Shown in pieces: positions 20,232-38,852 of a stretch of 63,950 nt of DNA (position 1 is the first letter of the stretch; each line of letters begins with the position of its first letter). Position numbers and translations under genes: made by a program. Under the pieces are notes generated by a model. It worked only from the letters and a program-made list of their open reading frames with translations. It did not search any database and was not told where the DNA came from. The stretch is taken from assembly GCA_027592135.1 (NCBI GenBank), contig JAQCIJ010000002.1, positions 1 to 63,950 of the forward strand, given 5' to 3'. The DNA comes from a bacterium (lineage in GTDB: Bacteria; Patescibacteriota; Gracilibacteria; Peribacterales; Peribacteraceae).

Positions 20232-21608
20232 CCGAGTCGCCAACAATATCCACACCGTATACGCTACTGCTGCATCTTCCCATGCATGCAAGAAGAGGGC
20301 TGCGATTGCAATACCAAAGAATGCTAATGCTACTGAGCAAGAAAAACGTTGGTTCGTTGATTCGTTGTTTCGAAGAAACGAACAAACCAATAAACGTTTT
20401 ACCAAGAGAAAGATTAAACTGAGATACAGCACAAAACCAAGAACACCGAGCTCTACCCCGATTTGCAGATACCAGTTTTCGGGCAAAAATGGACATGTGC
20501 ATTCAGCATCGACAGGCTGCACTTGCGTATCGCCTACAAACACACAAAGGTTTTCGTGTATCTGTGCCCACGAAGGATCATCCCCTTCTTCTAAATACAC
20601 ACACGTATCACTAACTCTGTTACTCGCAGGACCAGCCGTCCCTAGCCCCAAACCAAAAGGATTCTGTATCATTACCTGCAATGCCTGCAAAGGTCTACTA
20701 ATATGATCACGTGTAGAGGCTGCACGCGAAACAATAGATGGTGCTATTGCTTGTAATGCAAAAAGACATACAAATGATATACAAAATAGTGCTCCAGATA
20801 GTTGAAAGAACTTCTTTCGAGGAAGCTGCTTCCAAAGCATCACTCCAACCAATACAGCAGTGGCTAAGAGTGCAGAACGAGAAAGCGTAAACAGCATGGT
20901 AAATAATACAAACGTTCCAATGACTAATGACCAATGACTAATGACTTTTTTATGAGAAAGTACAACAGAGAACGGTATGATCAACCATAATCCTAATTGA
21001 TTCGGCCCACTCATCGTCGACTGAATACGACGAATAGCACTGCCACCAATCTGCTGGAATGCAGCCAAAGGAGCATCACTCTGGTACAAAGAATGTAAGT
21101 CACTGTACCCAAGCCACACAAAAAACTGCTGGTGCATATACATTCCTAAAATTCCATACACAGAAATTATGGCTGCAGCGATAAGGATCACTTTGAATAC
21201 GTGATTCATGAATTGATCCGACCACTCCACACGTCGTAAGATCATGAATGTAATAAGCGGGATGAAGTCATATTTAAAACCGTAGAGAAACTGGTTGATA
21301 CGTGATGAGTGATGCGTGATAAAAAGAACAATTGAAAGTAAGAGTAATAACAATATGCAAACATCAAGTACATCAATACGTATTACTCTTAACCCATTTC
21401 TCTTCACTTTCTTAAGAATTTCAACTACAGCAATCAACAAAATAACTCCCAATACTGCCTCTTTCCAGAGGGCTAGATACGTAAGTGGAGCATTCCCCGG
21501 ACCTGCAATAAGCTTTGTACCAACCGTTACGATAAACGCATGGAACGGAAGGAGTCCCAAAAGTACTATCGTAAGATGTTGGCGAACATTCTGAAGAGTC
21601 ATATACAC
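20220..21608 (-). CDS. O-antigen ligase / polymerase family (Wzy_C-like) membrane protein
   Basis: Polytopic, with FTLSRSALLATAVLVGVML typical of the family. It has a Cys-rich predicted external loop (DTCVYLEEGDD...CVFVGDTQVQPVDAECTCPF). Confidence 0.65.
   Translation of the reverse strand: MYMTLQNVRQHLTIVLLGLLPFHAFIVTVGTKLIAGPGNAPLTYLALWKEAVLGVILLIAVVEILKKVKRNGLRVIRIDVLDVCILLLLLLSIVLFITHHSSRINQFLYGFKYDFIPLITFMILRRVEWSDQFMNHVFKVILIAAAIISVYGILGMYMHQQFFVWLGYSDLHSLYQSDAPLAAFQQIGGSAIRRIQSTMSGPNQLGLWLIIPFSVVLSHKKVISHWSLVIGTFVLFTMLFTLSRSALLATAVLVGVMLWKQLPRKKFFQLSGALFCISFVCLFALQAIAPSIVSRAASTRDHISRPLQALQVMIQNPFGLGLGTAGPASNRVSDTCVYLEEGDDPSWAQIHENLCVFVGDTQVQPVDAECTCPFLPENWYLQIGVELGVLGFVLYLSLIFLLVKRLLVCSFLRNNESTNQRFSCSVALAFFGIAIAALFLHAWEDAAVAYTVWILLATRLQK
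20919..20946. repeat. (AATGACT)x4 heptamer array, coding
   Basis: Reads aatgact aatgacc aatgact aatgact inside the O-antigen-ligase-family ORF (VISHWSLVIG). A related degenerate block lies at 30552-30579. Confidence 0.9.
21301..21321. repeat. CATCACG-family heptamer array (x3, reverse orientation), coding ITHHSS
   Basis: On the plus strand it reads cgtgatg agtgatg cgtgata. The reverse complement, atcacgcatcactcatcac, is identical over 19 nt to 38481-38499. Confidence 0.9.
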
Positions 21609-21634
21609 CTATCGTACTTTATCCACTATCCTCT

Positions 21635-22963
21635 TTACAGTCCAATTCTCTCCTCCTCTCCCCGAAATACTTCACCAGTTGCCAGCACTTCTTCTACAGC
21701 ATCTATACATTTACTACTCACATTCTCTCCATAGATCTTTGGTGCATTACGCATTTCTTTGTTGTCCCACGCGTATTCAACAATGCTCTTAATAAGATGA
21801 GCATCGATTGGAGGGGCAATCAGGTTTCCTCCATTAATCGCAGACTCAGATCTATCGGATCCAAAGCGAAGTGTCACACACGGCACACCCATCACATTCA
21901 TCTCTTCTTGCATACTTCCAGAGTCGGTAGCTACCACCGCAGCCTTGCTCATCGCCGCAATAACATCCACGTACTCCGCCCAAACAGGTGAGTAGATAAA
22001 GTTATCGTATTCCTTGTCCATATTCTCTACCTCTGCCTTCAGACCAAAGTTCTCGAGGGCAGATTCTGTTTTAAACAAAGAGATGAGTAATACTTTGCGT
22101 CCTTCTTCGATCAGCATCTTCATTGCATCATAAATAGCACGAAATCGTTTTTCGTTTGTGCAGTTTTCTCCGCGATGAATACAAAATCGTACGAAGTCTC
22201 CATCAGCGAGTTCCGGATGACGTTCAAATACTGTAGAGCTGTCTGCACGACTCATCGCTTCGTGCGTAGCATCGGCAACAGAGTTTCCAACAACAAAAAT
22301 ACGATCGTCACAGTACCCTTCTCCTAGCATAAATTCACGATCAAGCTCTACAGGAGCTAGGTGAATTCCAGTTGCTGCTTCTGCGCATCGTGTATTGAAT
22401 TGTTCTGGGAACGGTTCTTGTGATCCTCTCTCCCAATTGTTGCGATCCATTTGAAATGCACGCCATGCAGCACAATCAAATCCATCATCACTCAAACTAA
22501 ACTCTGCAAACTTTGGTGTAAGTGTTCGGATCCCCGCTTCGACATGCACAGCAGCAAACTTATGACAGTATCCTGCATTAGCAGCGGCCATACACGTTGT
22601 TGTGTCTCCATGAACATACGGAATCACGGTCTTTCCTTTTTCTTTTAGCTCTCCAATAACGTATCCCAAACGACCAATAATCTGGCTTACTACTTCGTGG
22701 GCAGGTCCGCGTACATTCAAATTAAAATCAGGCTCTACCCCAAACTCTTTCAGCATTCCTCCTGATAAGTTTTCATCATAGTGCTGACCCGTGTGACCAA
22801 GAAGCACCAAGTGCCCTCTATTTTGTAACTCTTTGTACAAAGGAATCTGCTTGATGATATCGGGCTTTGTCGCGATCAAAATGAGATGCACATTGGTCTG
22901 GCTGTTTGCAGCCACCTCGTCATAAAAGCCTTCAGAGCGGTACGTTATCTCTTGCATGCGCAA
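21635..22963 (-). CDS. UDP-N-acetylglucosamine 2-epimerase family protein
   Basis: Epimerase_2 pattern: HLILIATKPDIIK, LLGHTGQHYD, VHGDTTT, and AVHVEAGIRT. Confidence 0.8.
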   Translation of the reverse strand: MRMQEITYRSEGFYDEVAANSQTNVHLILIATKPDIIKQIPLYKELQNRGHLVLLGHTGQHYDENLSGGMLKEFGVEPDFNLNVRGPAHEVVSQIIGRLGYVIGELKEKGKTVIPYVHGDTTTCMAAANAGYCHKFAAVHVEAGIRTLTPKFAEFSLSDDGFDCAAWRAFQMDRNNWERGSQEPFPEQFNTRCAEAATGIHLAPVELDREFMLGEGYCDDRIFVVGNSVADATHEAMSRADSSTVFERHPELADGDFVRFCIHRGENCTNEKRFRAIYDAMKMLIEEGRKVLLISLFKTESALENFGLKAEVENMDKEYDNFIYSPVWAEYVDVIAAMSKAAVVATDSGSMQEEMNVMGVPCVTLRFGSDRSESAINGGNLIAPPIDAHLIKSIVEYAWDNKEMRNAPKIYGENVSSKCIDAVEEVLATGEVFRGEEERIGL

Positions 22964-22990
22964 AGCATAGCCGAACTTGTGTGTAAAGAT

Positions 22991-23656
22991 CTACACTCTT
23001 CCCTCTTTTACACTCTTATCTGTTGTAGAAGCACCCTTAGTTACAATGCCCTCAACGTGTAAAATTTCGTGCTCTACCATGTTTTCTCCTTTGAATTTGT
23101 AAATATACGGGGTGCAAAGACCAATTTCTAATGCAGCTGTAGCCTCTGGAGTCAGCCCTTCAAGGTTTTTAATAATCGGCCTCAGGCTGTTTCCATGGGC
23201 AACAACCAGTACTGTTTTACCTTCTTTGAGAAGTGGAAGAATATGCTCTACGAAATACGGCCATGTGCGCTTCTCACAATCTTCCATACTCTCTCCATTG
23301 GGAGGACGCGTATGAAAGCTACGCCGCCACAGTTGAACTTGTTCCTCTCCGTATTTCTCAACAGTCTCTGCCTTATTCAATCCTTGTAGATCTCCATAAC
23401 TACGTTCATTGAGAGCTTCGTCTTTCGTAATAGGCAGATTCTGCCCCAATGTTTCCAAAATAACATCCAACGTTCCTGTTGCCCTCTCGAGTACCGAAGT
23501 AAATGCACTATCGAAAATAAAACCTTTAAGAGCATTCCCACACAAGGCAGCATCCTGCTTTCCTCGTTCTGTAAGTGGCACATCTGTCCAACCCGTAAAT
23601 CTATTTTCTAAATTCCACTGAGATTGACCGTGTCGAATAGCGATAAGAGTTCCCAT
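22991..23656 (-). CDS. gpmA: 2,3-bisphosphoglycerate-dependent phosphoglycerate mutase
   Basis: LIAIRHGQSQWNLENRFTGWTDVPLTERG, and VVAHGNSLR. Confidence 0.88.
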   Translation of the reverse strand: MGTLIAIRHGQSQWNLENRFTGWTDVPLTERGKQDAALCGNALKGFIFDSAFTSVLERATGTLDVILETLGQNLPITKDEALNERSYGDLQGLNKAETVEKYGEEQVQLWRRSFHTRPPNGESMEDCEKRTWPYFVEHILPLLKEGKTVLVVAHGNSLRPIIKNLEGLTPEATAALEIGLCTPYIYKFKGENMVEHEILHVEGIVTKGASTTDKSVKEGRV

Positions 23657-23713
23657 GCACCAAAAATACCACAGCTTCCCTCGAGAATCCATGTTTGCTA
23701 CACTTCACTCCTG

Positions 23714-24067
23714 ATGGAAATACATCACCTATCCAGAGGCCGTTTTCTCCACACTGTTGGATGGGGCCTTATGGCGAGCCTTGTCGTAGTAGGAATCGCC
23801 GCAGGACTCGGAAGAGCAACGGTAAACCTCGGAGCTGCCCTCACCGATAAGCCTGATATTGCTATCTATCTTCTTCTCCCAGATGAAGGACTCCATTCAA
23901 TAGAAGTACTAAAAGAAGAAGAGAACGAACGACACTACATGGCAGAAAGCAAAGACGGTCCAAAGTTTATTATCCTCAAAAAAGGAGAGGAAGAATGGTA
24001 CATCTCTCACGTCGAAAGGCTACACGCAGATGCTAACTCCGAAGAACCAGAAGCGGAAACCGAATAA
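23714..24067 (+). CDS. Hypothetical single-pass membrane protein
   Basis: Start chosen at MEIHHLS. It has one TM helix (GLMASLVVVGIAAGL) and an acidic C-terminus. Its 3' end overlaps the convergent TagA-family gene. Confidence 0.4.
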   Translation: MEIHHLSRGRFLHTVGWGLMASLVVVGIAAGLGRATVNLGAALTDKPDIAIYLLLPDEGLHSIEVLKEEENERHYMAESKDGPKFIILKKGEEEWYISHVERLHADANSEEPEAETE

Positions 24068-24749
24068 CCGCGGTATAGATTCTACCAATACGAGAGGGCT
24101 GAATCAGTAAGCGCCACAACCACTCGAGTCCTGTTTTTTGCATAAACTTCGGAGCTCGTTTTATAGAACCCGAAAGAAAATCAAACGTTCCTCCTACACC
24201 AATTGCCACTTTGATAGAGGTAAGGCTAAGTAAATGCTGATTGATCCACAAGTCCTGAGCTGGTGCGCCGTAGGCAACCAGCAGAAGCTGTGCACCACTA
24301 TCATTTATTTGCCTTATGATCTCAGCTGCATCTTCTTCTTTTGGGGAGCCTTCATAAGAAAACGTTACGAGTTGCGCGTTGCGCGTTGCGAGTTTCTTTG
24401 CAGCTCGAGAACCTACCCCGCCTTTTCCACCTAAAAAAAACACAGGACATTCGGCACCTGCAGAGAGTAATAACCGCTCTACCGTATCCACACCTGTCAC
24501 TCTCTCGGGAAGATGTTGACCTGATCGCGCGGCAGCCCATAAAAGCCCCGTCGAATCGGGAAGATTAAGTTCTGAGGTTTGTAGTAGTGACTTAAACGTC
24601 GAATGCTTTTGTGCAAGGACGAGCATCTCATTATTCGGAGTCATAACATGGTGTTTGCTACCATCTGAAAGCATTTGCGATATACGTGCAATGGCTTCGT
24701 CCTGAGTTAAGGGATCGATTGGTACGCCGAGAATTCGTACACGCTGCAT
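24033..24749 (-). CDS. WecB/TagA/CpsF family glycosyltransferase
   Basis: ILGVPIDPLTQDEAI, FFLGGKGGV, YGAPAQDLWI, and GVGGTFDFLSG..KRAP...GLEW.WRL..P.R. Confidence 0.85.
   Translation of the reverse strand: MQRVRILGVPIDPLTQDEAIARISQMLSDGSKHHVMTPNNEMLVLAQKHSTFKSLLQTSELNLPDSTGLLWAAARSGQHLPERVTGVDTVERLLLSAGAECPVFFLGGKGGVGSRAAKKLATRNAQLVTFSYEGSPKEEDAAEIIRQINDSGAQLLLVAYGAPAQDLWINQHLLSLTSIKVAIGVGGTFDFLSGSIKRAPKFMQKTGLEWLWRLLIQPSRIGRIYTAVIRFPLLVLRS
24368..24395. repeat. (CGNGTTG)x4 heptamer array, coding
   Basis: Reads cgagttg cgcgttg cgcgttg cgagttt inside the TagA-family ORF (ATRNAQLV). Confidence 0.85.
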
Positions 24750-24778
24750 AGATCAATAGTATACGATATACTGCGTCC

Positions 24779-25147
24779 ATGCTCGAACAATCCACCATCA
24801 GAGTTTTGCTCCCAATTGGGTTCTTTAGCGGGCTTGTTGCCATGCTCATGCTTGGGGAATCGTTTAAGCATATTCAGGCGACAACAGTAATAATTAATGG
24901 AGAGACCCCACAAGTACAACAGGTTCCTACTCCTGCGCAGGCATTACCTCGTTGTAAACAAAATAGTGATTGCCCTCTTCCTACAACGTATTGCAGTCAA
25001 AGTGGAAAATGCACGCAACTCACAAATCCTATCTGTGATTGTAGTCAGCCACAGGTATTGCGATGCTACGAAGAGTCAGGAAAAGCACGATTCTTGTTTT
25101 GTCCGAGTGCATGTGTAGAAACCAGAAACGGTGCTATCTGCCAATAA
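24779..25147 (+). CDS. Small membrane-anchored Cys-rich protein
   Basis: It has an N-terminal hydrophobic helix and 10 Cys in the C-terminal 70 aa (CKQNSDCPLPTTYCSQSGKCTQLTNPICDCSQP..). It lies immediately upstream of a DsbA-like gene. Confidence 0.5.
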   Translation: MLEQSTIRVLLPIGFFSGLVAMLMLGESFKHIQATTVIINGETPQVQQVPTPAQALPRCKQNSDCPLPTTYCSQSGKCTQLTNPICDCSQPQVLRCYEESGKARFLFCPSACVETRNGAICQ

Positions 25148-25169
25148 AAAAATCCGCTACAGTAAATCT

Positions 25170-25844
25170 ATGAGACGCTATGTTTTTCTTTTGAGCTTGC
25201 TAATCCTGCTTACTGCGTGCGTGCCTCTCGAAGCACCCCAAAAAGCACCTGCACAACAGGATCAAGTAGAAGCATTAGACAGTGACCAGCTAGAATCAGA
25301 AGATGGGCAACTGCAGATTGTCGAACGACTTCTACCATCTGGACTCATAGAAATTGGTGACCGCGATGCACCAGTAGTTCTTCTAATATTTACCGAGCAC
25401 CACTGTCGTTACTGTAAAGACTTTTATCACGAGCACTTCCCCCTTCTGATCGAAGACTTTGTAACCCAAGGAAAACTAAAACTGCAAATTAGCATCTTGC
25501 CACTACGTAAATACATTCACAGCCAAAATGCAGCACTGGGACTTTTATGTGGGGCAACGCAAGGTAAGGGAATCCCCATGCATGAGCTCCTCTTCGCTCT
25601 TGGGGCTAAAGATCGAGAAGCTCTCCTTAGTGAAGCTGCCACATTAGAACTCGATCAAGATCTTTTTGTACAATGCCTCGATAGCCCAGATACACTCAAG
25701 ACTGTGGAGAGGCAAAAGTCCATCGCACGGTCTCTCGATGTCACCCTTGTTCCAACATTCTTCCTCAACGGGGAAAAGTCTGTAGGCCTTCCGCAGTATG
25801 CAGACTTACGAGGAATGATTGAAGTAGTAACTACGGACGAATAA
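25170..25844 (+). CDS. DsbA-like thioredoxin-fold lipoprotein
   Basis: The start MRRYVFLLSLLILLTACV carries a lipobox. The CxxC motif is in FTEHHCRYCKDF, followed by a DsbA-like helical insertion and VPTFFLNG. Confidence 0.7.
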   Translation: MRRYVFLLSLLILLTACVPLEAPQKAPAQQDQVEALDSDQLESEDGQLQIVERLLPSGLIEIGDRDAPVVLLIFTEHHCRYCKDFYHEHFPLLIEDFVTQGKLKLQISILPLRKYIHSQNAALGLLCGATQGKGIPMHELLFALGAKDREALLSEAATLELDQDLFVQCLDSPDTLKTVERQKSIARSLDVTLVPTFFLNGEKSVGLPQYADLRGMIEVVTTDE

Positions 25845-26100
25845 TCCGTATCAACTTAACGCGAGTTGTTGCTCCCGAAAGCATCTTCACCTGCTCTTTT
25901 GCTACACCAAACTCCTGCGCCAAGTACCGCTTGAGTTCTGCGTTTGCTTTTCCATTTTCGGCAATCGCCGCTACGTGAATCTTTACACTTTCATCATCCA
26001 TAATACTCTGCACTTCGGTTTTCGCCATACCAGACCGCACACGCACATAAAACTGCACCGTATCTTTTTCGGCCAATTCGCTGATGAGGCTTTCGAGCAT
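25831..26100 (-). CDS. DUF167 (YggU) family protein
   Basis: 89 aa. The pattern VRVRSG..KTEV......IHVAA.AENGKAN.EL.RYLA..FGV.K..V....G.T.R.K is typical of the family. Confidence 0.7.
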   Translation of the reverse strand: MLESLISELAEKDTVQFYVRVRSGMAKTEVQSIMDDESVKIHVAAIAENGKANAELKRYLAQEFGVAKEQVKMLSGATTRVKLIRIIRP

Positions 26101-26101
26101 A

Positions 26102-26806
26102 TTAGCTTAGCTGATTTTTCCTCCACTTCTCTATCTCTGCATGATGACCAGAGAGAAGAACATCTGGTACTTTGATTCCTGCGTACTCATCTGGCCTCGT
26201 GTAGTGGGGATATTCTTTTTTACGATCTAAAGCAGGGGAAAAGCTTTCCTCTTGCGCCGACTCTTCTTTGCCAAGTACTCCAGGGATATGTCGAGCTATA
26301 GCATCGACGAGCACCATTGCTGGGAGCTCTCCTCCAGTAAGAACGTACTCTCCGATACTGATCTCTTCGTCGATCCAGCCTCCTTCTACGATACGCTGAT
26401 CGATCCCCTCGTAATGGCCGCACAGGAGAATAATCCACTCATACTGCTTGGCAATTTTTTCTACTTTTTCCTGCGTCAATCGCTCTCCGCGAGCAGAAAG
26501 ATAGATGCGATAAGGAACATACTTTGCACCAAAAACATCTTTAATTTTACGCATTCCATTAATAGATGTTCGTCCAGCTTTGGTGACTTCTTCAATAGCA
26601 GGAATAATAACATCTGCACGCATCACCATTCCGGCTCCACCACCATACGGTTCATCATCCACTTGTCTGTGTGTACCAATACCCCACCGTCTCAAATCGT
26701 GATAATGAATATCTATCCGCTTTTCCTTCTGTGCACGACCAATAATACTCTCGCCCAAAGGTCCGCGAAACATGCCAGGGAATAATGTAAGGATATCAAT
26801 ACGCAT
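26102..26806 (-). CDS. trmD: tRNA (guanine37-N1)-methyltransferase
   Basis: MRIDILTLFPGMF, YGGGAGMVM, CGHYEGIDQR, SIGEYVLTGGELPAMV, and YTRP. Confidence 0.92.
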   Translation of the reverse strand: MRIDILTLFPGMFRGPLGESIIGRAQKEKRIDIHYHDLRRWGIGTHRQVDDEPYGGGAGMVMRADVIIPAIEEVTKAGRTSINGMRKIKDVFGAKYVPYRIYLSARGERLTQEKVEKIAKQYEWIILLCGHYEGIDQRIVEGGWIDEEISIGEYVLTGGELPAMVLVDAIARHIPGVLGKEESAQEESFSPALDRKKEYPHYTRPDEYAGIKVPDVLLSGHHAEIEKWRKNQLS

Positions 26807-26807
26807 A

Positions 26808-26845: not shown

Positions 26846-26850
26846 CATCT

Positions 26851-28797: not shown

Positions 28798-28800
28798 AAT

Positions 28801-28828
28801 TAATTGTTAATTGTTCATTGTTAATAGT
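28801..28828. repeat. (TAATTGT)-type heptamer array
   Basis: Reads taattgt taattgt tcattgt taatagt. It spans the alpha-beta spacer and supplies the last codons (LLTMNN) and the stop of the alpha subunit. Confidence 0.85.
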
Positions 28829-30549
28829 TTCCCTTGAAGTTCATCAAAGAAAAACGGACGTCCGTCGTACTTTAAGATCTGATGATCAAATGTAAGACCA
28901 GATTCCATACGAATCAGCTTTGAAAGATGTCCTTGATACGTTGCTTCGATGAAAATAATTTTCTTTGCTTTCGCCGCAAGTGCTTCGAGCTTCTCTATAC
29001 GAAGAGGCCAGAGGTAACTGTAGTGCAAGTATCCGATTCCTTTTTGATCTTTTATTGCATCCAAAATACATCCCTTGTTACTCCCCCAACTGACAATAAG
29101 TGTCTCTGGATTTTGATCTCCAAACAATTCTGGATCCGGAAGAGCAGCCTTCATCACTGCCATCTTCTTCATACGCTTATCCATCTGTTCTATGGCATTT
29201 TGTCCGCCCTCTTCTACATTCCCTTCGCTATCATGTTCATCTCCCTGAGCGCAGTACGTAGCGGCTTTCGCTCCTGGTAACCACCGTGGAGAGATGCCAT
29301 CTTTTGCAGCAGGATTATAACGGTCTGCACTTACGAGCTTGTCGAGCTCAGCCTGCTTCGTAACCAGGTTTCCACGACTGATCTTTGCTTTTTTGAGATC
29401 ATATTGTGGCTGCATATATAAACCCTCTGCGATATGCTTATCCGTAAGAATAGTCACAGGCAACTGATACTCCTCTGCGTAGTTAAACGCATCTGGCATC
29501 AAGTCGAAACAATCTTGGCTATCGCTTACAGCCATCACCAGCCGTGGATATTCTCCATGAGACCCAAAGATCGAAAGCAACATATCACCCTGCCCACTCC
29601 ATGTCGGAAGTCCTGTAGAAGGGCCTTGCCGCATAGCAAGAACCATCACAGATGGATTCTCGATGATTCCATTAAGCGACAGTGTCTCGGACATTAAATC
29701 ATATCCACCACCCGAGGTAGCAGTCGCAGCCCTCGTCCCCATATGCATCGCACCCGATACCATTTGTATAGCGGTGATCTCATCTTCCGCCTGCTTTACC
29801 ACCATGTTCGTCTTATTCTGATTATCTGCAATATATTTAAGAAGTGGAGAAGCTGGTGTCATCGGATATCCACAATACATACGGCACCCCGCATGCACCA
29901 TTCCCATACCCATTGCTTCACTTCCTGTTACCAGTAAGTCATCTGTTCGAGCAGCATCTGGAGATGGTACATCTATCACTATCGCACCTGCACTCTCTTC
30001 TTTAAACTTTTTCCCTTCGTCAATAAACGTGTGATTCAGTGCGATGACCTTTTCTCCTTTGTGTGCAAACTGTTCAGCCGCCATGTCTTTAAGTGTGTCG
30101 TAATTTCTTCCTAGTAGTCCCCACACAACTGCCGTCACACACATGTTTCCAACAATCGGGCGACTGTTGTGTTCTTTTAAGATTTTCTCCATCGGTAGAT
30201 AGAGAATCTGAATTTTTTTGTCATCGAGCATTTTCTGATCCTCCGCAGAAAACTTCCAATCGGGAATCAAATGCAGCAGCACTCCTCCTTCTTTTACTGA
30301 TCCAAGATCGCGCTGAAGTCCGATGTAGTTTAAGCACACCAAGATATCGACATGAGTCTCAGAAGACTCGATATGAGAGTCGCAGATATCTAGCTGATAA
30401 CTACTGTGTCCTCCTTTAATTACCGACATATATTCACGATATCCAAACACATGGTGCCCCGCACGCTTAAGACCCTTCGCCACCATCTCACCTACAGAGT
30501 TAATACCCTGTCCTTGTGCGCCAGTGACTTTAAAGGAAATTCTGCTCAT
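28807..30549 (-). CDS. 2-oxoacid:acceptor oxidoreductase, alpha subunit with an N-terminal gamma-like domain
   Basis: VTGAQGQGINSVGEMVAKGL (gamma-type domain), then GYPMTPASP and the transketolase-like C-terminal region. No delta/ferredoxin subunit lies adjacent. Confidence 0.85.
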   Translation of the reverse strand: MSRISFKVTGAQGQGINSVGEMVAKGLKRAGHHVFGYREYMSVIKGGHSSYQLDICDSHIESSETHVDILVCLNYIGLQRDLGSVKEGGVLLHLIPDWKFSAEDQKMLDDKKIQILYLPMEKILKEHNSRPIVGNMCVTAVVWGLLGRNYDTLKDMAAEQFAHKGEKVIALNHTFIDEGKKFKEESAGAIVIDVPSPDAARTDDLLVTGSEAMGMGMVHAGCRMYCGYPMTPASPLLKYIADNQNKTNMVVKQAEDEITAIQMVSGAMHMGTRAATATSGGGYDLMSETLSLNGIIENPSVMVLAMRQGPSTGLPTWSGQGDMLLSIFGSHGEYPRLVMAVSDSQDCFDLMPDAFNYAEEYQLPVTILTDKHIAEGLYMQPQYDLKKAKISRGNLVTKQAELDKLVSADRYNPAAKDGISPRWLPGAKAATYCAQGDEHDSEGNVEEGGQNAIEQMDKRMKKMAVMKAALPDPELFGDQNPETLIVSWGSNKGCILDAIKDQKGIGYLHYSYLWPLRIEKLEALAAKAKKIIFIEATYQGHLSKLIRMESGLTFDHQILKYDGRPFFFDELQGKLLTMNN

Positions 30550-31113: not shown

Positions 31114-33195
31114 ATGAGCCTATTTGAACCAACATCCATAGCAGTTATTGGTGCCAGCTCGGTGGAGGGGAAGGTGGGGCACGATATCCTCAAGAATTTG
31201 ATCGAAGAAGGATTCATAGGACCCATCTACCCTATCAATCCAAAGCACGACGAGATCCTCGGGAAACCAGCCTTTGCATCGGTAAAAGATGTGCCGGGAG
31301 ATATTGATCTTGCAGTGATTGTCATCCCAGCAAAACGTGTACCAAGTGTATTGCAAGAATGTATAGATGCATCGATCTCAAACGTTGTCATCATCAGTGC
31401 AGGATTTTCTGAAGTCGGTACAGAAGAAGGAAAACAGCTCGAAGAACAGATAAAAGACATGGCACGAACCAACGAACCAACGAACCAACAAATAAATATC
31501 GTCGGCCCTAACTGTTTAGGAATACTAAATCCGAGTCATAACATGAACGCATCGTTTGCTGTACATCTTCCACCAGAAGGTTCTGTCGCACTTATCTCAC
31601 AATCTGGTGCGATGGCTGTTGCCGTTATGGATGCATCAGAAGAACTCGGAATTGGATACTCTCTTGTCGCAAGCATCGGAAACAAAACCGTAATGAATGA
31701 ATCAGATTTTTTACGCATTGCAGGTAATGATGAAAAAACATCAGTGATAGGATTCTATTTAGAAAGTATTACTGACGGAAAAAAGTTTTTACAGACCCTT
31801 ATAGAAGTTGGAGCAACAAAAAAAATCGTGATCTTAAAATCTGGCGTGTCACAGCACGGCTCCGAAGCTGCGGCTTCGCATACCGGAGCACTTGCCGGAA
31901 CCGATGCCTCTATTGATGCACTCTGTGCGCAAAGTGGTGCTGTACGTGCACACGACATGCAAGAGTTTGTGGATCTTCTCGAGATACTCAGTTCACAACC
32001 ACAACTCCCTACTCCACGCATTGCCATTATTACCAATGCAGGAGGTCCGGGAATCTTAGCAACAGACGCTGCGCAAAAAGCAAAGCTCGAAATGCCAGCC
32101 TTAAGTGAAGCAACAGAAAAAATTCTGCAGGCTGCCTTACCTTCATCTGCCAGTACCAAAAATCCTATAGATGTCATTGGTGATGCAGACTTGCTGCGAT
32201 ACGAAGCTGCGCTTAGCGCAGTAGGAGAAGACCCAAACATCGATGGAGTCGCAATACTACTGACACCGCAGGTAATGACACCTGTAGAAGACATAGCCAA
32301 TGCCATTATTAACTGGCAGAAGACACATACCACCATGCCCGTTGTCACCAGTTTTATGGGAAACGAGCACGTGCATGATGCAAAGCTCACGATGCAAAAA
32401 GCAGGTATCCCCTGCATCGAGACACCAGAACGAGCAATCGCCGCACTCGGCGCCTTACGTATCACTCATCATTCATCATTCATCACGCATCACCAACAAA
32501 ATACCACGCGTGCCAAAGAGGCTAATACCCTCCTCGGTGAATACTCCGGCCTTATTCCAGAGGATGCAGTCACTAAACTTTTCGCCCTCTACGACATTCC
32601 ACTTCCTGCCCAAGAGATCGCAACAACAGAAGAAGAGGCAGTAAGTATAGCCAATAAAATCGGCTACCCCGTTATCGCCAAGATTTCCTCTCCGCATATT
32701 CTGCACAAAACAGATATAGGTGCTGTACGCACACACTTACTTACAGAAGATGATGTACGCACGGCGTGGAAAGAGATTATGAAAAACGTAGCCAAACATA
32801 GTCCGAAGGCAGAGATCAGAGGAATATTAATCCAGAAGCATTTGGAAGCTGGAAAAGAATTTATTATCGGCTCTACCAGAGACGCTTCTTTCGGCCATCT
32901 TGTTATGGCAGGACTCGGAGGAATTTATACAGAGCTTCTCAACGACACTGCATTTCGCATTGCACCGATCGACCAAGAAGAATCCTATCGTCTGTTGCAA
33001 GATCTTATCTCTTGGAAGCTCTTGCTCGGTATACGCGGAGATGTACAACTGGATATCGACAGTGTCGCAAAACTCCTCGTCACTATCTCACAACTGGTTA
33101 CAGAGTGTCCGCTTATTAAGGACATCGACTTAAACCCTGTCTTTGTGCATGAAGACCACGTCATCGTTGCCGATGCAAAAGTGGTAATTGGATAG
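31114..33195 (+). CDS. ADP-forming acetyl-CoA synthetase (acetate--CoA ligase, fused alpha/beta)
   Basis: CoA-binding N-terminus (SIAVIGAS...GKVGH), the ligase-CoA domain (SQSGAM...), a phosphohistidine-loop-like segment ASHTGALAG, and a C-terminal ATP-grasp. Confidence 0.85.
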   Translation: MSLFEPTSIAVIGASSVEGKVGHDILKNLIEEGFIGPIYPINPKHDEILGKPAFASVKDVPGDIDLAVIVIPAKRVPSVLQECIDASISNVVIISAGFSEVGTEEGKQLEEQIKDMARTNEPTNQQINIVGPNCLGILNPSHNMNASFAVHLPPEGSVALISQSGAMAVAVMDASEELGIGYSLVASIGNKTVMNESDFLRIAGNDEKTSVIGFYLESITDGKKFLQTLIEVGATKKIVILKSGVSQHGSEAAASHTGALAGTDASIDALCAQSGAVRAHDMQEFVDLLEILSSQPQLPTPRIAIITNAGGPGILATDAAQKAKLEMPALSEATEKILQAALPSSASTKNPIDVIGDADLLRYEAALSAVGEDPNIDGVAILLTPQVMTPVEDIANAIINWQKTHTTMPVVTSFMGNEHVHDAKLTMQKAGIPCIETPERAIAALGALRITHHSSFITHHQQNTTRAKEANTLLGEYSGLIPEDAVTKLFALYDIPLPAQEIATTEEEAVSIANKIGYPVIAKISSPHILHKTDIGAVRTHLLTEDDVRTAWKEIMKNVAKHSPKAEIRGILIQKHLEAGKEFIIGSTRDASFGHLVMAGLGGIYTELLNDTAFRIAPIDQEESYRLLQDLISWKLLLGIRGDVQLDIDSVAKLLVTISQLVTECPLIKDIDLNPVFVHEDHVIVADAKVVIG
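31465..31488. repeat. (CGAACCAA)x3 octamer array, coding
   Basis: Three copies, 24 bp, in frame (TNEPTNQQ). It is related to the 39751-39777 array and to cgaaccaacgaa in the spacer near 45750. Confidence 0.85.
32461..32495. repeat. CATCACG-family heptamer array (x5), coding ITHHSSFITHH
   Basis: Reads atcactc atcattc atcattc atcacgc atcacca inside the acetyl-CoA synthetase ORF. Confidence 0.9.
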
Positions 33196-33198
33196 AAG

Positions 33199-33234
33199 GT
33201 TTGGAAAGTTTGAAATGTTTGATATGTTTGATAA
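33199..33234. repeat. (GTTTGAWAN)x4 nonamer array
   Basis: Reads gtttggaaa gtttgaaat gtttgatat gtttgataa. The last unit forms the small palindrome gtttgataagattcaaac. It fills the spacer before the Nif3-like gene. Confidence 0.85.
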
Positions 33235-33246
33235 GATTCAAACATT

Positions 33247-34209
33247 ATGAAACTCGAAAAAATGTTTAAGCGCGCAGTAGAAATTGGAATGCAAGCCGAC
33301 GTGCGTGAAAAAAAATACTTCGATCGCTATTTTAAAAAGCAAAAAGAGGCTCAGAAAAATGCAAAAGGATGGAAAAAGGATATTTTTGATGACGAACGCA
33401 CATGGAACCCCTACTCCGATTGCCGCATCATAAATGGTAATGGTAAAGAAGAAATAAAAGTCCTGATGGTCGGTATTGATATCGAAACACCAGAAGTCCT
33501 TCTTGCAGACCGCTTAAGAGAAAAGGGGCAAAAAATCGACTGCCTCTTTATTCACCACCCAGAAGGTCGCGCACTTGCCGACCTCGAAAAAGTTATGCCA
33601 CTACAGATTGATATTCTTGCGAAGGCAGGAGTACCTGTTAATCACAGCGAAGCACATCTAAAACCTCGGATGGATAAAATCTGGAGGTCTATTCATGCTG
33701 ATAACCTCTTTCGCACAGAGCGCGCTGCAGAGCTTCTCGATATCCCTGCATTTTGCTGCCACACCATCACCGATAACCTTGTATGGGCTTATATGGAAAA
33801 AAACATCTGTGCTAAACCTTTTGAAGATCTTAGTGAAATCATCGATGCACTGATGAAAATCCCAGAGTTCGAATACTACGCCAAAAAAGGAAATCCACCG
33901 ATTATAGCCAATGGAAGCCCGAGCAACAGCCCTGGAAAGATCGTAGCGACCGAATTTACTGGTGGAACCAATGGCCCAGAAGACCAGCTTATCGCCCAAA
34001 GCAAAGCAGGAGTCGGTACTATCCTTTCTATGCATGTCACCGAAAAAACCCTTGATGCTGCCAAGGAGCATCATGTTAATATGATCCAATGTTCCCATAT
34101 GGCAAGTGATGCCATTGGTATAAACTTGCTTATCGATATCCTCCAGAAAGAGGATAAAGGTATTAAAACCATAGATACCTCTGGCTTTATTCGGGTGAAG
34201 AGGAAGTAG
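33247..34209 (+). CDS. Nif3-like (DUF34) dinuclear-metal-centre family protein (tentative)
   Basis: A FIHHPEG motif and the C-terminal CSHMASDAIG resemble the Nif3 metal ligands. The assignment is by pattern only. Confidence 0.45.
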   Translation: MKLEKMFKRAVEIGMQADVREKKYFDRYFKKQKEAQKNAKGWKKDIFDDERTWNPYSDCRIINGNGKEEIKVLMVGIDIETPEVLLADRLREKGQKIDCLFIHHPEGRALADLEKVMPLQIDILAKAGVPVNHSEAHLKPRMDKIWRSIHADNLFRTERAAELLDIPAFCCHTITDNLVWAYMEKNICAKPFEDLSEIIDALMKIPEFEYYAKKGNPPIIANGSPSNSPGKIVATEFTGGTNGPEDQLIAQSKAGVGTILSMHVTEKTLDAAKEHHVNMIQCSHMASDAIGINLLIDILQKEDKGIKTIDTSGFIRVKRK

Positions 34210-34306
34210 TCCTCCCTCCAGTAACTTTCCTTGGCAATTACAGCTCTTAGGGGCTTGATTTTTCCGTGTTCTATCAGTAGAGTCCGCAAGATTTACCAGA
34301 TCTTCT

Positions 34307-34666
34307 ATGAACCCTACTCAAACAGACCAAGACCCTCAAAATTCTTCAACAGGGACTTCTCCGTTTACCCAGATCCAACTGCTTGAAAAACGCGAAAAGG
34401 AACGCGTCGAAAAAGAACTCGTTGCGATGCAAAAAGAAAAAGAAGAAGTATCGCAAGCTGTAGCCAGAAAAGAGGCTTCTACAACAGAGGAATATAAGAA
34501 GAATGCCAAGAAAGAACTCAAAGAATACAGTGAAAAAGAGCTCACCATTATTTTAAGTACGGCAACAACTGATGCAGAATTAGAAGTTGAACGCATTGAA
34601 TCTGCGGCAAAAAAGAATGAATCTTCTGCAGTACAAGAACTTGTTTCTATTGCAAAAAATCTCTAA
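34307..34666 (+). CDS. Coiled-coil protein, probable V/A-ATPase peripheral-stalk subunit (G/H-like)
   Basis: 119 aa, Lys/Glu-rich and helical. It is the first gene of the operon, immediately before subunit I, as in Thermus and Enterococcus operons. Confidence 0.45.
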   Translation: MNPTQTDQDPQNSSTGTSPFTQIQLLEKREKERVEKELVAMQKEKEEVSQAVARKEASTTEEYKKNAKKELKEYSEKELTIILSTATTDAELEVERIESAAKKNESSAVQELVSIAKNL

Positions 34667-36592
34667 ATGACACTCGTACAGATGCAAAAAGTCGGCATTA
34701 TTGCTCACTCCTCTCTCCGAGAAGACCTCATTGCCATGTTGCATGACGAAGGAGTACTTGATGTACGCGCTGCAGGAGAAAAAGTACAAATCGATCACAT
34801 AAAAGTAGAATATAAAGCTGCGGAAGTCTCATTTGCCGTTACGACACTCAAGGATTTTGCTGATAAGCAAACTCTTGCTGTTTGTGATAAAAAAGTATCA
34901 ATAGAAGACACTGTACATGCTGCTAAGCACACAGATGTGCATGGAATAATAGGTCAACTACATCTACTAGAAAAAGAAGACACCGAAGCAAATCGTGCAA
35001 TGGTGGAGCTTAAAGACTTACGTGCGGAACTTAGTCTTTGGAAAAACCTTCATGCAAATCTTAGTGAGAGTAATACATCAGAACATACCATTCGGATTTA
35101 CGGAACATTACCATTGCTCAAAGAGCACATACTGCATGAGTCTATGATTCAATCTATAAAACGCAGTGTTCTAGAGAAGGTATCGAATACACAAGAAAAA
35201 GAGGAGGCATACGTTGCTATCATTTGGAAAGACGACCTTCGAAAATTCGAAGAGATTGCCACAAGTCTCGGCTGGACACATACGTCTCTACCTAGAGTAG
35301 ATGCAACCCCTAGCCAAAGTTACGAGGAAGCAATTATGGAAGAAAAAAAGCTAAAAGAATTACTTGAACGCAATGTCTTGAAACGAAAAAAGTTATCAGT
35401 AGAACTCCCTAATCTTCTCAAGGTACAATTGTTCTTGCGTTGGTTAGACCAAAAACAAGAAGTACGCGAGTCTATGGCTGCAACAGTTTCTACCATCACA
35501 CTACTAGGATGGATGGCAGCAAACCGTATGAAAGAATTAGAACAGAAACTCGAAAAGCTCAATCCTGCAATCGCTCTTGTAAAAGTAAAGCCAGATGAGA
35601 ACGAAGAGACTCCAGTGCTCCTAAAGAATAAAAAGATTATTGCACCATTCGAAAGTGTAACGGGGCTCTACGGATTGCCTCTCAGCAGAGAGATGGATCC
35701 AACTGCTGCCTTGTCTCCATTCTTTATTCTGTACTTTTCACTCTGTCTTACCGATGCGGGATACGGAGCAATCATTGCATTGCTCTTTGGTGGATACCTT
35801 CTAAAGACTCGAAAGACTATAGAGGAAGCAAAACTTCCATGGCTCCTATTCTTTGGTGGTGTCATGACATTCTTTGTCTCCATTCCTTTTGGAGGATGGT
35901 TTGGATTTACTCCAGAGCAAGTACCAGCAATCCTTACAAAGCAAACAGCACAGGGGCTTCTGTTTAAGGGTCAGATCTGGAACTTAAGCGCTCAGTCTGG
36001 AATCGACTTCCTTCAAAATCTCTCACTAAGCCTTGGAATTACACATTTATTCTTTGGAATGTTCTTGGCAGGTCAACACAAGTGGATCCATGGAAAAAAG
36101 GCAGAAGCACTCTGGGTCGACTTTACTGCTCACCTTCTCCTAGGATCGATTATCGTCTACGCCCTTCGCCCTTCGCCCTTCGCCCTTTATCTCCTCTACG
36201 CATCTATTGCGATAATGATATGGGGTAAAGGATACGGAACTGTATGGTATGCACGTCCTTTGATGGGACTCCTTGGAACAATGAACTTCGTCATTGGAAT
36301 GATTAGCAATGGCTTAAGTTACCTACGTATTTTAGCGCTGGGACTTGTCACTGGTGCGATTGCTGCAGCGATTAACCAGGTAGCAGTCGAGATGGGGAAA
36401 CTCTTCCCTGTTTGGCTCGCGATCCCTGTGATCGTTATTATTTTCCTCGGTGGTCACACCGTTTCTATTGCCCTTAATACTCTCGGAAGCTTTATCCATT
36501 CTGGTCGTCTCCAGTTTATTGAGTTCTTCTCTCAATTCTTTGAGGGAGGCGGAAAGGAGTTTTCTCCATTCCGCCGAACAACTTCGTCTTAA
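34667..36592 (+). CDS. ntpI: V/A-type ATPase subunit I (a)
   Basis: 641 aa, with a soluble N-terminal half and a polytopic C-terminal half containing LSYLRILALGL and GSFIHSGRLQFIEFF. Confidence 0.88.
   Translation: MTLVQMQKVGIIAHSSLREDLIAMLHDEGVLDVRAAGEKVQIDHIKVEYKAAEVSFAVTTLKDFADKQTLAVCDKKVSIEDTVHAAKHTDVHGIIGQLHLLEKEDTEANRAMVELKDLRAELSLWKNLHANLSESNTSEHTIRIYGTLPLLKEHILHESMIQSIKRSVLEKVSNTQEKEEAYVAIIWKDDLRKFEEIATSLGWTHTSLPRVDATPSQSYEEAIMEEKKLKELLERNVLKRKKLSVELPNLLKVQLFLRWLDQKQEVRESMAATVSTITLLGWMAANRMKELEQKLEKLNPAIALVKVKPDENEETPVLLKNKKIIAPFESVTGLYGLPLSREMDPTAALSPFFILYFSLCLTDAGYGAIIALLFGGYLLKTRKTIEEAKLPWLLFFGGVMTFFVSIPFGGWFGFTPEQVPAILTKQTAQGLLFKGQIWNLSAQSGIDFLQNLSLSLGITHLFFGMFLAGQHKWIHGKKAEALWVDFTAHLLLGSIIVYALRPSPFALYLLYASIAIMIWGKGYGTVWYARPLMGLLGTMNFVIGMISNGLSYLRILALGLVTGAIAAAINQVAVEMGKLFPVWLAIPVIVIIFLGGHTVSIALNTLGSFIHSGRLQFIEFFSQFFEGGGKEFSPFRRTTSS
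36161..36188. repeat. (GCCCTTC)x4 heptamer array, coding
   Basis: Reads gcccttc x3 plus gcccttt inside subunit I (ALRPSPFAL). Confidence 0.9.
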
Positions 36593-36619
36593 TTTTCCTA
36601 CTTTCTCCCACGTTTTCCC

Positions 36620-37213
36620 ATGAAAACATCGTACAAACTACTCGCAGCTGCAGGCGCTCTCGCTCCAGTCGCTGTACTCGCTCAGGATCCAGCAGCAGTT
36701 GCCGCAACAAACGCCGGAGCAATTCAATGGGGTCTTGCACTTGCCTTCCTTGGTGCTGCAATGGCTACATTCCTTTCTTGCATTGGTTCTATCCTTGGTG
36801 TTTCTATGACTGGTCAAGCTGGTGCAGGTCTTCTTACCGAAAAGCCAGAGCTTGCCGGTAAAGTAATAACCCTCATGGTGCTACCTGGATCTCAGGGGCT
36901 CTATGGAATGGTTATCTCCCTTCTATTCATCTTTAACTACGGACCAGTAATAGACGGCTCTGTCGCAATTTCTGTTTCTCAGGGAGTTATCCTTCTCGCA
37001 GCTACATTGCCTGTAGCCATCACATGCCTTACTTCTTCTCCATACCAGGCGAAGGTATGTAGCGCTGGTATGCACATGCTTGCAAAAGACGATAAGCTTA
37101 CAGGTCGTGTTATTACTATGGCTGCCCTTGTTGAGACATACGCTCTTCTTGGATTCCTTATTTCATTCTTTATGCTCAATAGCTTCAGAGTTGGAATCAT
37201 CGTCGCTAGCTAA
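36620..37213 (+). CDS. ntpK: V/A-type ATPase proteolipid subunit K (c), 4-TM type with a signal-peptide-like N-terminal extension
   Basis: PGSQGLYG in the first hairpin and a single carboxylate in ALVETYALLGF in the last helix. The N-terminus MKTSYKLLAAAGALAPVAVLAQDP looks like a signal peptide. Confidence 0.85.
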   Translation: MKTSYKLLAAAGALAPVAVLAQDPAAVAATNAGAIQWGLALAFLGAAMATFLSCIGSILGVSMTGQAGAGLLTEKPELAGKVITLMVLPGSQGLYGMVISLLFIFNYGPVIDGSVAISVSQGVILLAATLPVAITCLTSSPYQAKVCSAGMHMLAKDDKLTGRVITMAALVETYALLGFLISFFMLNSFRVGIIVAS

Positions 37214-37253
37214 TCCTATTTCCCAAGTTCCCAAGCTCCCTATTTCCCAAGTT
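37214..37253. repeat. (CCCAAGTT)-type octamer array, 5 units
   Basis: Reads tcctattt cccaagtt cccaagct ccctattt cccaagtt. It fills the K-E spacer up to the start codon. Confidence 0.85.
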
Positions 37254-37257
37254 TTCC

Positions 37258-37812
37258 ATGGCTATACAAGATATTCTCGCTGCCATCACCGCCGAAGCTG
37301 ATAAGCACATTACAGACACACGTGCACTTCACCTTCGTTCACTTACACAAGTACGTGAAGAAAGTGAACGTAACCTTGCAAAGAAGAAGCAAGAAATTGC
37401 TATCGCCAAGCAGCAAAAGATGGACCAGCTCTCTGCCAAAGCACACACGCACGCACATGCGCAACAACGCAATGCAGTGTTGTCTAAGAAGAAAGAAATT
37501 CTAGACAGCGTATTTGCAAATGCAGCAGCAGAACTTGCAAAGCTCAGTGATAAGGAAATAGAACCTCTCTTACGGAAATGTCTAAAGAGCATAAAGGCAA
37601 AAGGTGTAATCCACCCTAGTGCAAAGCATGCAGACTTACTCAAGAAAATCTGTCCATCAGAGCAGTTTCGTATTGATAAACCTACAAATGCAAAAGGAGG
37701 ATTCTTGTTTATTTCCGAAAGCCAAGAACAAGACTTCACCTTCGAGCACCTTATAGAAAAAACTGTTCGTCCAGAGCAAGAATTAGAAATTTCCAAAATG
37801 TTATTTACATGA
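37258..37812 (+). CDS. ntpE: V/A-type ATPase subunit E
   Basis: N-terminal long helix plus C-terminal globular part (KGGFLFISESQEQDFTFEHLI). Operon position also fits. Confidence 0.8.
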   Translation: MAIQDILAAITAEADKHITDTRALHLRSLTQVREESERNLAKKKQEIAIAKQQKMDQLSAKAHTHAHAQQRNAVLSKKKEILDSVFANAAAELAKLSDKEIEPLLRKCLKSIKAKGVIHPSAKHADLLKKICPSEQFRIDKPTNAKGGFLFISESQEQDFTFEHLIEKTVRPEQELEISKMLFT

Positions 37813-38852
37813 TCCCCTCCTTCTCCACCATCGTGCAACAAGATTTCGCGTATGCCTCTGGGCGCACTGGTGTCCTGCAGCAGTTATTGCTGACAGCAAG
37901 TGATAGAGATCGTTTGCTCGGAGCAACGAGCCTAAAAGAAGCAGAAGCTATTCTTACAGAACTAAGACTTACCAACCCGATAGATCAAGGACTCGAAAAG
38001 AGTGACGAGATTTTACGTGCTATCGGAGCTTGGGTACGAGAGGAGGTAGATACAATGGCTCCAGCCAACAAGCGTCCTACGTTTCATATTCTCTGGCTAG
38101 AAGAAGATGCTCCTGTACTTTCGTATCTTCTAAAAAAGCATCACGGTCTGACATCAGCCATCAGCTCTCAACCACAAAGTAGAATGACTGCCTATAGTAC
38201 AAAAGCTCTCCAATCGCTTGTCGAAGAAGATATAGCAGGATCCATCCCCTCACACCTTACTGCGTTTGTAAAAACCATAAAAAACCAGCGCGGAGGGATA
38301 CATCGCAGTGATCAGTGGAAACCAGAAGAGATTGATAATGCAGTATCGAAATACGTTGCATCGTTGCAGCTCTCTCTTGCTCGTGCAAGTGGATCGAAAG
38401 CACTACGCACATACGTAGAGCATAAAATTGACCTCACAAATATTCGGACTGCATTACGAGTAAAAAGTGATGAGTCACGCATCACGCATCACTCATCACT
38501 TCTTCAAGGTGGGACTATAGATCTACAGAAAAAACTTGGAAACCCCGAAGCAATTGCAAAAGCTATAGATAGATCCGATCTTCCAAACACCATTGCCGAA
38601 GTAATCCGAAATACAAATGATGATTCAACAGTACTGGAACATGCACTCAGCAAAGTTATCGCAAATGACATCGCACACATGTGGAACATTCCTCTGAGCA
38701 TCGAACCCGTATTTGCATTTGCCGCTCTTGCCCAAAGCCAAATAAGACTCCTCAGAGTATTACTGATTGGTAAACGTGCGAATATGAGCCCTCAAGAAAT
38801 TAAACATATGCTTCCGCCATTTTTGTCCGCTTCGCATTACGTTCTCTCATGA
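37809..38852 (+). CDS. ntpC: V/A-type ATPase subunit C (d)
   Basis: 347 aa. DFAYASGRTGVLQQLLL, with helical repeats. Operon position also fits. Confidence 0.8.
   Translation: MIPSFSTIVQQDFAYASGRTGVLQQLLLTASDRDRLLGATSLKEAEAILTELRLTNPIDQGLEKSDEILRAIGAWVREEVDTMAPANKRPTFHILWLEEDAPVLSYLLKKHHGLTSAISSQPQSRMTAYSTKALQSLVEEDIAGSIPSHLTAFVKTIKNQRGGIHRSDQWKPEEIDNAVSKYVASLQLSLARASGSKALRTYVEHKIDLTNIRTALRVKSDESRITHHSSLLQGGTIDLQKKLGNPEAIAKAIDRSDLPNTIAEVIRNTNDDSTVLEHALSKVIANDIAHMWNIPLSIEPVFAFAALAQSQIRLLRVLLIGKRANMSPQEIKHMLPPFLSASHYVLS
38474..38501. repeat. CATCACG-family heptamer array (x4), coding RITHHSSL
   Basis: Reads gtcacgc atcacgc atcactc atcactt inside subunit C. Confidence 0.9.

Follow-up and report, generated by a model that had tools for sequence, protein, structure and literature searches.

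Why should three unrelated proteins of one bacterium carry the same hexapeptide, ITHHSS? The question is raised by a stretch of 63,950 nucleotides (nt) of contig JAQCIJ010000002.1 (assembly GCA_027592135.1, family Peribacteraceae), here called the window, in which ITHHSS is encoded within the genes for a Wzy_C/O-antigen-ligase-like membrane protein (Wzy), a fused ADP-forming acetyl-CoA synthetase (ACD) and subunit C of a V/A-type ATPase (V-ATPase C). An earlier reading of the same DNA (the original prediction) had explained the coincidence by insertion or duplication of a discrete sequence into coding DNA, with selection for one tolerated reading frame. The analysis described here points to a different answer, namely that the ITHHSS segments are probably independent heptanucleotide simple sequence repeat (SSR) arrays, made by misalignment in a 7-nt register, kept where they were tolerated and, within open reading frames (ORFs), filtered by stop codons. 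Statements at the level of this genome rest on the 64 kb of the window.

In all three ORFs the peptide was found to be coded by ATCAYNC-type period-7 arrays (2.7-4.7 copies per locus by Tandem Repeats Finder, TRF). The predicted origin of ITHHSS from ATCAC-type heptamers was therefore borne out, as were the host identities, which were backed by Pfam, the score of host ORF 1 for Wzy_C/O-antigen ligase being marginal (31.3 bits, cut-off 31.7). The host genes and their arrays are as follows:

20220-21608, minus strand: Wzy_C/O-antigen-ligase-like membrane protein, host ORF 1, which holds LFITHHSSRI
21297-21320, minus strand: Wzy array, ATCACGC ATCACTC ATCACGT ATC, 24 nt, coding ITHHSSRI
31114-33195, plus strand: fused alpha-beta ADP-forming acetyl-CoA synthetase, host ORF 2, which holds RITHHSSFITHHQQ
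32461-32495, plus strand: ACD array, ATCACTC ATCATTC ATCATTC ATCACGC ATCACCA, 35 nt, coding ITHHSSFITHHQ
37809-38852, plus strand: V/A-type ATPase subunit C (AC39/d), host ORF 3, Pfam vATP-synt_AC39, which holds SRITHHSSLL
38474-38499, plus strand: V-ATPase C array, GTCACGC ATCACGC ATCACTC ATCAC, 26 nt, coding SRITHHS

The Wzy array is positioned in a loop between predicted membrane helices. ACD shows the full Pfam domain set, and its array sits in the linker between Ligase_CoA_2 (amino acids 304-447) and ATP-grasp_5 (amino acids 479-692). In V-ATPase C, ITHHSS occupies residues 225-230, the codon of its second serine ending at 38501, beyond the array. Comparison of V-ATPase C with PDB chains, by single sequence and by profile, gave no useful match, while a fold search with its AlphaFold model (predicted local distance difference test, pLDDT, 85) indicated a resemblance to Thermus thermophilus subunit C (1V9M; template modelling score 0.61-0.67). 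Surface exposure, which the original prediction had proposed to check, is predicted for V-ATPase C, where ITHHSS falls within a low-confidence surface block of the model (residues 221-230, pLDDT 65); the ACD segment could be placed in a Pfam inter-domain gap. Homologues of all three host proteins carry the names Candidatus Peregrinibacteria or Peribacteraceae, and the host is a bacterium of the candidate phyla radiation (CPR) with a V/A-type ATPase operon.

It had been claimed that the ACD and V-ATPase C loci share an identical 19-mer with the Wzy locus. The exact 19-mer ATCACGCATCACTCATCAC was found at two places only in the window, 21302-21320 (minus strand) and 38481-38499 (plus strand), and is thus shared by Wzy and V-ATPase C; the best matches within the ACD array differ from it at 3 positions. 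The 19-mer family as a whole is non-random, with 7 matches at up to 3 mismatches in the window and 0 in 100 shuffles. The three arrays have no common flanks, ends or target duplications, and differ in both unit variants and length (24, 35 and 26 nt), so that insertion of a discrete element is unsupported. Elsewhere in the window, the run ATGACGC ATCACTT ATTAC at 53164-53182, which codes for DASLITH in the ORF at 51975-53759 (plus strand), may be a decayed fourth array of the ATCAC type.

The shared orientation and frame had been taken as a sign of selection for one tolerated frame. All three arrays do lie in the sense orientation, but "the same reading frame" is imprecise, as the array starts at codon phase 0 in Wzy and ACD and at phase 2 in V-ATPase C. 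Six-frame translation showed that the antisense of ATCACNC is GNGTGAT (e.g. GTGATGA), tandem copies of which carry TGA in all three frames; an antisense ATCACNC array therefore cannot lie inside an ORF. In the sense orientation all three frames yield one cyclic heptapeptide (ITHHSSL or ITHHASR), only phase-shifted, because 7 and 3 are coprime, and as successive units step through phases 0, 1 and 2 every array has a phase-0 unit. With the sense orientation and the lengths of the arrays taken as given, the probability of an ITHH-S-S hexapeptide in all three proteins was estimated at 1 x 2/3 x 1/3, or about 0.2. With all sense frames equivalent and orientation forced by antisense stops, the frame is little informative and does not speak for selection of one frame. 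Once one unit is present, the stop filter and the coprimality of 7 and 3 suffice to give unrelated proteins the same peptide, orientation and apparent frame.

The stop filter was tallied over 52 arrays in 154 kb from four related genomes. Of the coding arrays, 28/30 are cyclically stop-free in sense; among intergenic arrays the figure is 8/22, compared with 70% of random genomic 7-mers. Unit families which are stop-free on both strands (TTTCCAC/GTGGAAA and CCGACAA/GGTTGTC) occur inside ORFs in both orientations, and ATCACNC in sense only. A stop-codon filter thus acts on arrays inside ORFs. The relatives, whose syntenic contigs are numbered L122 to L131 below, share repeat peptides of other kinds, such as GKRKVENGK in the ACD of L122 and KRKTENGKRKM in the Wzy of L131, both from the GGAAAAC/GTGGAAA family.

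The three ITHHSS loci are a small subset of the heptamer arrays of the window. TRF identified approximately 20 period-7 arrays, mostly of about 4 copies or 30 nt, with diverse units (including ACTATCC, GCTACTA, CTACAAG, TTAACAG, AATGACT, CGTTGCG, CCCTACC, TTAATTG, CGCCCTT and TAGTGGA), and a few others with a period of 8 or 9. The window contains 7 perfect period-7 runs of 19 nt or more, compared with 0 in dinucleotide-type shuffles; for the other periods the numbers were 2 (period 8), 1 (period 9) and 0 (periods 2-6 and 10-15). Arrays referred to in the following are:

6488-6518, plus strand: ACTATCC x4.4 (TATCCAC family), in frame in the HPPK gene
20919-20946: AGTCATT x4, a second array in Wzy
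24363-24394, minus strand: CGCAACG x4.6, in frame in a WecG-family glycosyltransferase gene
28800-28829, minus strand: CAATTAA x4.3, filling the spacer from a stop to the next start
31464-31489: period-8 array ACGAACCA x3.2 in ACD, coding TNEPTNQQ
36160-36187, plus strand: CGCCCTT x4, in frame in V-ATPase subunit I
37220-37253, plus strand: TTCCCAAG x4.2, intergenic, ending 4 nt ahead of the start codon at 37258
39751-39777, plus strand: period-8 array ACGAAACA, in frame in V-ATPase subunit A
51587-51618, opposite orientation: TATCCAC family again, upstream of a start codon
56785-56800: TATCCAC family again

Over the four related genomes at least 7 unit families recur, including ATCACNC, TATCCAC/TTTCCAC, CCGACAA, CCCTAAC and others, which coexist, and many further units occur once. 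Identical units (with rotation and reverse complement allowed) were found in 30 site pairs among 42 independent sites, TTTCCAC alone occupying 6 of these, where 0.97 pairs were expected and the maximum in 2000 draws was 6. Since this recurrence is far above chance, the original prediction was correct in its sense of a non-random "same repeat". The lengths of perfect period-7 tracts, counted over the window and L122, L124, L126, L128 and L131 (154 kb), were bimodal, falling off over 13-18 nt and peaking again at 26-33 nt, beyond which there was no tract. Tracts of period 8 and 9 are few and fall in the same 26-33 nt range, and a second length mode was seen at periods 7-9 only. Assembly artefact as the sole cause of the 33-nt ceiling was considered and rejected, as JGI, ENA and Logan assemblies all show the ceiling and as ATCACNC arrays of 8-10 units have been assembled in other phyla.

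Loci of 16-18 kb were aligned with the syntenic contigs of the relatives using MAFFT, the nucleotide identity being approximately 96% for L126-L130, 89% for L122, L123 and L131, and 77% for L124 and L125. In V-ATPase C the segment is kept, while diverging through point changes, in relatives at 98%, 87% and 71% identity (ITNHAS, ITHHSS, ITYHAS); the next clade has a 9-residue gap there and remoter orthologues have a variable loop. At the DNA level neither the position nor the length of the array changes in L124 or in L122, where it is a perfect ATCACTC x3.7; the insertion is therefore old, has been inherited vertically and lies in a loop prone to indels. V-ATPase C is the only one of the three with a net insertion relative to its orthologues, so that the expectation that ITHHSS would prove to be an insertion stood for this protein, where the gap lies in the nearest outgroup, and failed for ACD and Wzy, where a loop has been replaced at constant length or with one added residue. 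A separate 7-residue insertion in V-ATPase C, RGGIHRS at residues ~164-170 (38295-38330), was seen elsewhere only in the 98% relative; it has no visible repeat origin and lies in the model's other low-confidence block (pLDDT 57).

The inter-domain linker of ACD has 17 residues and equal length in all close relatives, each of which has its own sequence there. Four heptamer arrays were found at this one place: ATCAYNC in the window, AACCGAC in L126, GTGGAAA/ACGGAAA in L122 and a degenerate xTCACxx in L124. A set of 55 orthologues showed the linker to be hypervariable, with a 7-residue periodicity in several of its versions. A relationship by inversion between the ATCAYNC array of the window and the GTGGAAA array of L122 was tried and rejected, only 1-2 of 7 positions agreeing in either orientation. 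Downstream of ACD, L122 has approximately 1 kb of extra DNA before the next gene (2608-3541 of that contig), including a PemK-like toxin gene; its counterpart in the window (33196-33246) holds a period-9 array only.

In Wzy, 12 residues of the window stand for 11. The closest relative for this gene, L128, has the non-repeat TYQTHGDWKL instead, which is conserved in many Peribacteria, and at the exact site (loop 2) L131 carries (TTTCCAC)x4, coding FFFHFPLSTFH. The gene as a whole (20220-21608, minus strand) is a mosaic in comparison with L128 (4585-5982), the 3' 900 nt being ~100% identical and the 5' 450 nt only 52-80%, which suggests recombination or a hypervariable N-terminal region.

Similar exchanges were observed at other sites. 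Relatives have TTCCCTA x3 (two relatives) or a non-repeat sequence (a third) at the V-ATPase subunit I site, and AATCACG x4.4 (one relative) or the non-repeat DAEGKKHD (two relatives) at the subunit A site; in relatives the spacer at 37220-37253 holds TTTCCAC x4 or CCCTAAC-like arrays, the WecG-family orthologue of one relative has AACTCGC x4.6, and the array at 28800-28829 is exactly one unit (7 nt) shorter in the ~96% relative L126. Arrays thus turn over between relatives, and the alignments support the view that ITHHSS is a derived condition in these proteins, many orthologues having no such segment. The divergent arrays lie within blocks of raised divergence, so that rapid replacement can be mimicked where old alleles recombine, and such recombination is suggested at these sites. 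Some units look locally seeded, given pre-existing sequence such as CACGA in the non-repeat allele of V-ATPase subunit A and the conserved Thr-His codon pair ACN-CAT in Wzy.

Non-coding arrays have a marked location of their own, which concerns the intergenic arrays and not the three ITHHSS loci. About 18 of the 22 lie within ~13 nt of a start codon or overlap it, and intergenic arrays usually fill the spacer from stop to start, ending 1-13 nt ahead of the start. Motifs resembling a Shine-Dalgarno (SD) sequence (GGAG, GAGG or AGGA at -18 to -6) were present for 1 of 67 predicted genes in the window, the upstream regions having little G and much C, T and A (e.g. 37228-37257 and 40988-41017). 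Judged from these upstream regions, translation in this organism appears to be initiated without SD pairing.

Scans of the window with Rfam and for tRNA genes gave no match. Two other repeats of the window were recorded. In the divergent intergenic region at 61109-61169 there are adjoining period-9 arrays, GGAAATCAA x3.3 and TCCTTGATT x3.4, which are roughly reverse-complementary to each other, and at 63188-63950 there is a tandem repeat with a period of 210 nt (3.6 copies, 88% identity), running past the end of the window, which is probably a repeated 70-residue protein module.

Heptamer arrays of the ATCAC type are widespread. A scan of GTDB genomes for ATCACNCATCACNCATCAC returned at least 120 loci in many phyla and, among the matches listed, ATCAC[GTC]C arrays of 3-10 units were found in Pyrinomonadaceae, Chloroflexia, Anaerolineae, Nitrospira, Planctomycetes, Verrucomicrobia and Bacteroidota, often right ahead of an ATG, beside other heptamer arrays, or as inverted pairs. 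Among those listed, 104 of 139 matches lay in stretches of 240 nt or more that are free of stops, a weak figure which is not relied on here, as GC-rich genomes give long spurious ORFs. In seven of the listed matches from Pyrinomonadaceae/Acidobacteriota (L009, L023, L025, L064, L104, L111 and L113) inverted ATCACTC pairs lie 30-50 nt apart and form long intergenic hairpins resembling terminators or repetitive extragenic palindromic (REP) elements. The V-ATPase C array of the window recalls these pairs in one respect: within 38465-38500, the AGTGATGAG that precedes the array is reverse-complementary to CTCATCACT at the array's 3' end, giving a potential 9-bp hairpin.

Among known repeats, heptanucleotides are the most abundant class of long SSRs (LSSRs) in many prokaryotes, according to the summaries of Mrazek et al. 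(2007) in PMC4679880 and PMC4692102, the former of which also gives polymerase slippage as the proposed origin of LSSRs. As far as these summaries describe LSSRs, the arrays of the window resemble them in being head-to-tail repeats of 5-11 nt units scattered over the genome, and both the tandem unit and the excess above chance with dominance of heptamers were found here; they differ in that over half of the arrays are in-frame parts of core genes, in that tracts do not exceed ~33 nt, and in that different units occupy orthologous sites of related strains. No description of heptamer repeats in Peregrinibacteria or other CPR bacteria was found in the literature searched.

A second comparison is offered by the TAACTGA direct repeats of marine Beggiatoaceae, Cyanobacteria and Bacteroidetes (MacGregor 2015, PMC4679880), which lie a few nt upstream of start codons where ribosome-binding sites (RBSs) are rare, and for whose ORF-internal copies, coding the 7-residue peptide LSVISYQ, an argument from stop codons and orientation has been made (PMC4679880). 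Like these, the Peribacteraceae arrays have 2-6 copies per set, stand close upstream of starts where a canonical RBS is rare, and occur within ORFs only in the stop-free orientation, with a periodic 7-residue peptide (ITHHSSL here) as the result; the start-proximal sets with rare SD motifs and the stop-free orientation of ORF copies are also features of short tandemly repeated repetitive (STRR) sequences. Unlike the TAACTGA case, in which one heptamer dominates and protein ends or hypothetical proteins are mainly affected, several families were found here, and interior loops of conserved enzymes are affected. The G-rich heptamers GGGAATC (Xanthomonas) and GGGGA(C/T)T (Nostoc) occur preferentially as arrays of four units (Rehm et al. 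2015, PMC4692102). The present arrays share with them and with cyanobacterial STRRs a genome-wide distribution, a marked preference for about four units, closeness to ORF ends and, typically, a C-rich strand that is the sense strand upstream of genes. In contrast to the G-rich heptamers, ATCACNC/GNGTGAT and most other units lack G-tracts on either strand, with no run of two or more G, and G-quadruplex formation cannot therefore explain the four-unit preference or the length ceiling here.

What, then, made the arrays? On the reading which we consider likely, the three ITHHSS segments are members of a lineage-wide population of heptanucleotide SSRs in Peribacteraceae, typically of ~4 units and 26-33 nt, in which the favoured unit ATCA(C/T)N(C) would have given rise to short arrays separately in three genes, through replication or repair events in which slippage or misalignment followed a 7-nt register. 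They would have persisted only in tolerant places, such as spacers 1-13 nt upstream of starts, surface loops and inter-domain linkers; within ORFs the unit has to be stop-free when read cyclically, which for ATCACNC leaves the sense strand only, and the periodic 7-residue product, I-T-H-H-S/A-S-L/R, is then identical in every frame. That slippage made the arrays, and why certain units are favoured, is what we infer. Several observations weigh against this reading. The bimodal tract lengths with their ceiling fit stepwise slippage poorly, the arrays stand in for ancestral sequence at near-constant length instead of adding 21 nt, and unrelated sites repeatedly have a few units in common (30 site pairs, ~1 expected). 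In addition, no indels were found over ~50 kb between independently assembled contigs of the same populations, and the arrays are thus not hypermutable on short time scales. That last result, together with the fact that every coding allele in all relatives is in frame, which is not what is seen at contingency loci, also makes it very improbable that the arrays are phase-variation (contingency) switches operating by 7-nt frameshifts; a one-unit strain difference in an intergenic array and the cell-envelope role of one host gene (Wzy) would be in keeping with switching, but V-ATPase C and ACD are core genes of energy metabolism. We likewise give little credence to ITHHSS as a selected functional motif (e.g. 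a His-His metal or proton-relay site) reached by convergence in three proteins: a histidine at the Wzy position is conserved in most orthologues, but close relatives carry unrelated peptides (QSGKRKVENGK, QSTDNRQPTTDY and FFFHFPLSTFH) or free variants (ITNHAS and ITYHAS), and the segments are placed in low-confidence loops and linkers.

The discrete short element of the original prediction, inserted or duplicated at three coding sites with only one-frame copies surviving, draws on the 19-mer common to two genes and on the absence of the segment from some orthologues. It is nevertheless improbable, as the frame argument is void at period 7, the ACD locus lacks the 19-mer, two of the three proteins show no net insertion and the copy in V-ATPase C is an old one that has been inherited vertically; moreover, none of the hallmarks of a miniature mobile element (of the MITE or REP-like kind), i.e. 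fixed length, conserved termini or inverted repeats, target-site duplication and common flanks, was found, and lengths and unit variants differ. Somewhat better placed, though still unlikely, is a trans-acting or templated process which installs or homogenises arrays from a limited repertoire, the ITHHSS loci being then related by copying; candidates would be ectopic conversion between dispersed arrays, a repair polymerase reiterating a short template over a ~30-nt patch, or a sequence-specific binding factor selecting units. Unit sharing at unrelated sites in both orientations speaks for it, as do the length-neutral replacement, the 26-33 nt mode common to periods 7, 8 and 9, and the TTTCCAC-family arrays of the L122/L131 genome, which lie at two of the three ATCACNC sites of the window and at 5 or more sites in 40 kb. 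However, no candidate enzyme or template was identified, many arrays have units occurring once, some sites look locally seeded (CACGA in V-ATPase subunit A, ACN-CAT in Wzy), and recombination of old alleles in the blocks of raised divergence can mimic rapid replacement. It is a minor possibility that a process in Peribacteraceae writes ~30-nt heptamer patches, from a small lineage-specific repertoire, over existing sequence at unchanged length. Were this the case, patches would be written into SD-less initiation spacers and protein loops, perhaps also in many bacteria of other groups that have such repeats; unrelated proteins encoded by the same genome would share peptides like ITHHSS while orthologues in sister strains differ; and a new mutational or repair mechanism, and with it a new source of protein loop diversity, would be involved.

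Independent heptanucleotide arrays remain the reading we prefer, and an odd peptide shared by unrelated proteins is explained by the arithmetic of a 7-nt period read in 3-nt codons and subject to a stop-codon filter. For annotation, such segments are to be treated as low-complexity, repeat-derived loops, and not as motifs or as evidence of homology. The findings extend heptanucleotide repeats to a lineage of the candidate phyla radiation, and bear on the origin of bacterial heptamer repeats through the constant-length swaps of arrays in sister strains, the G-quadruplex-independent mode at ~30 nt and the non-random choice of units.

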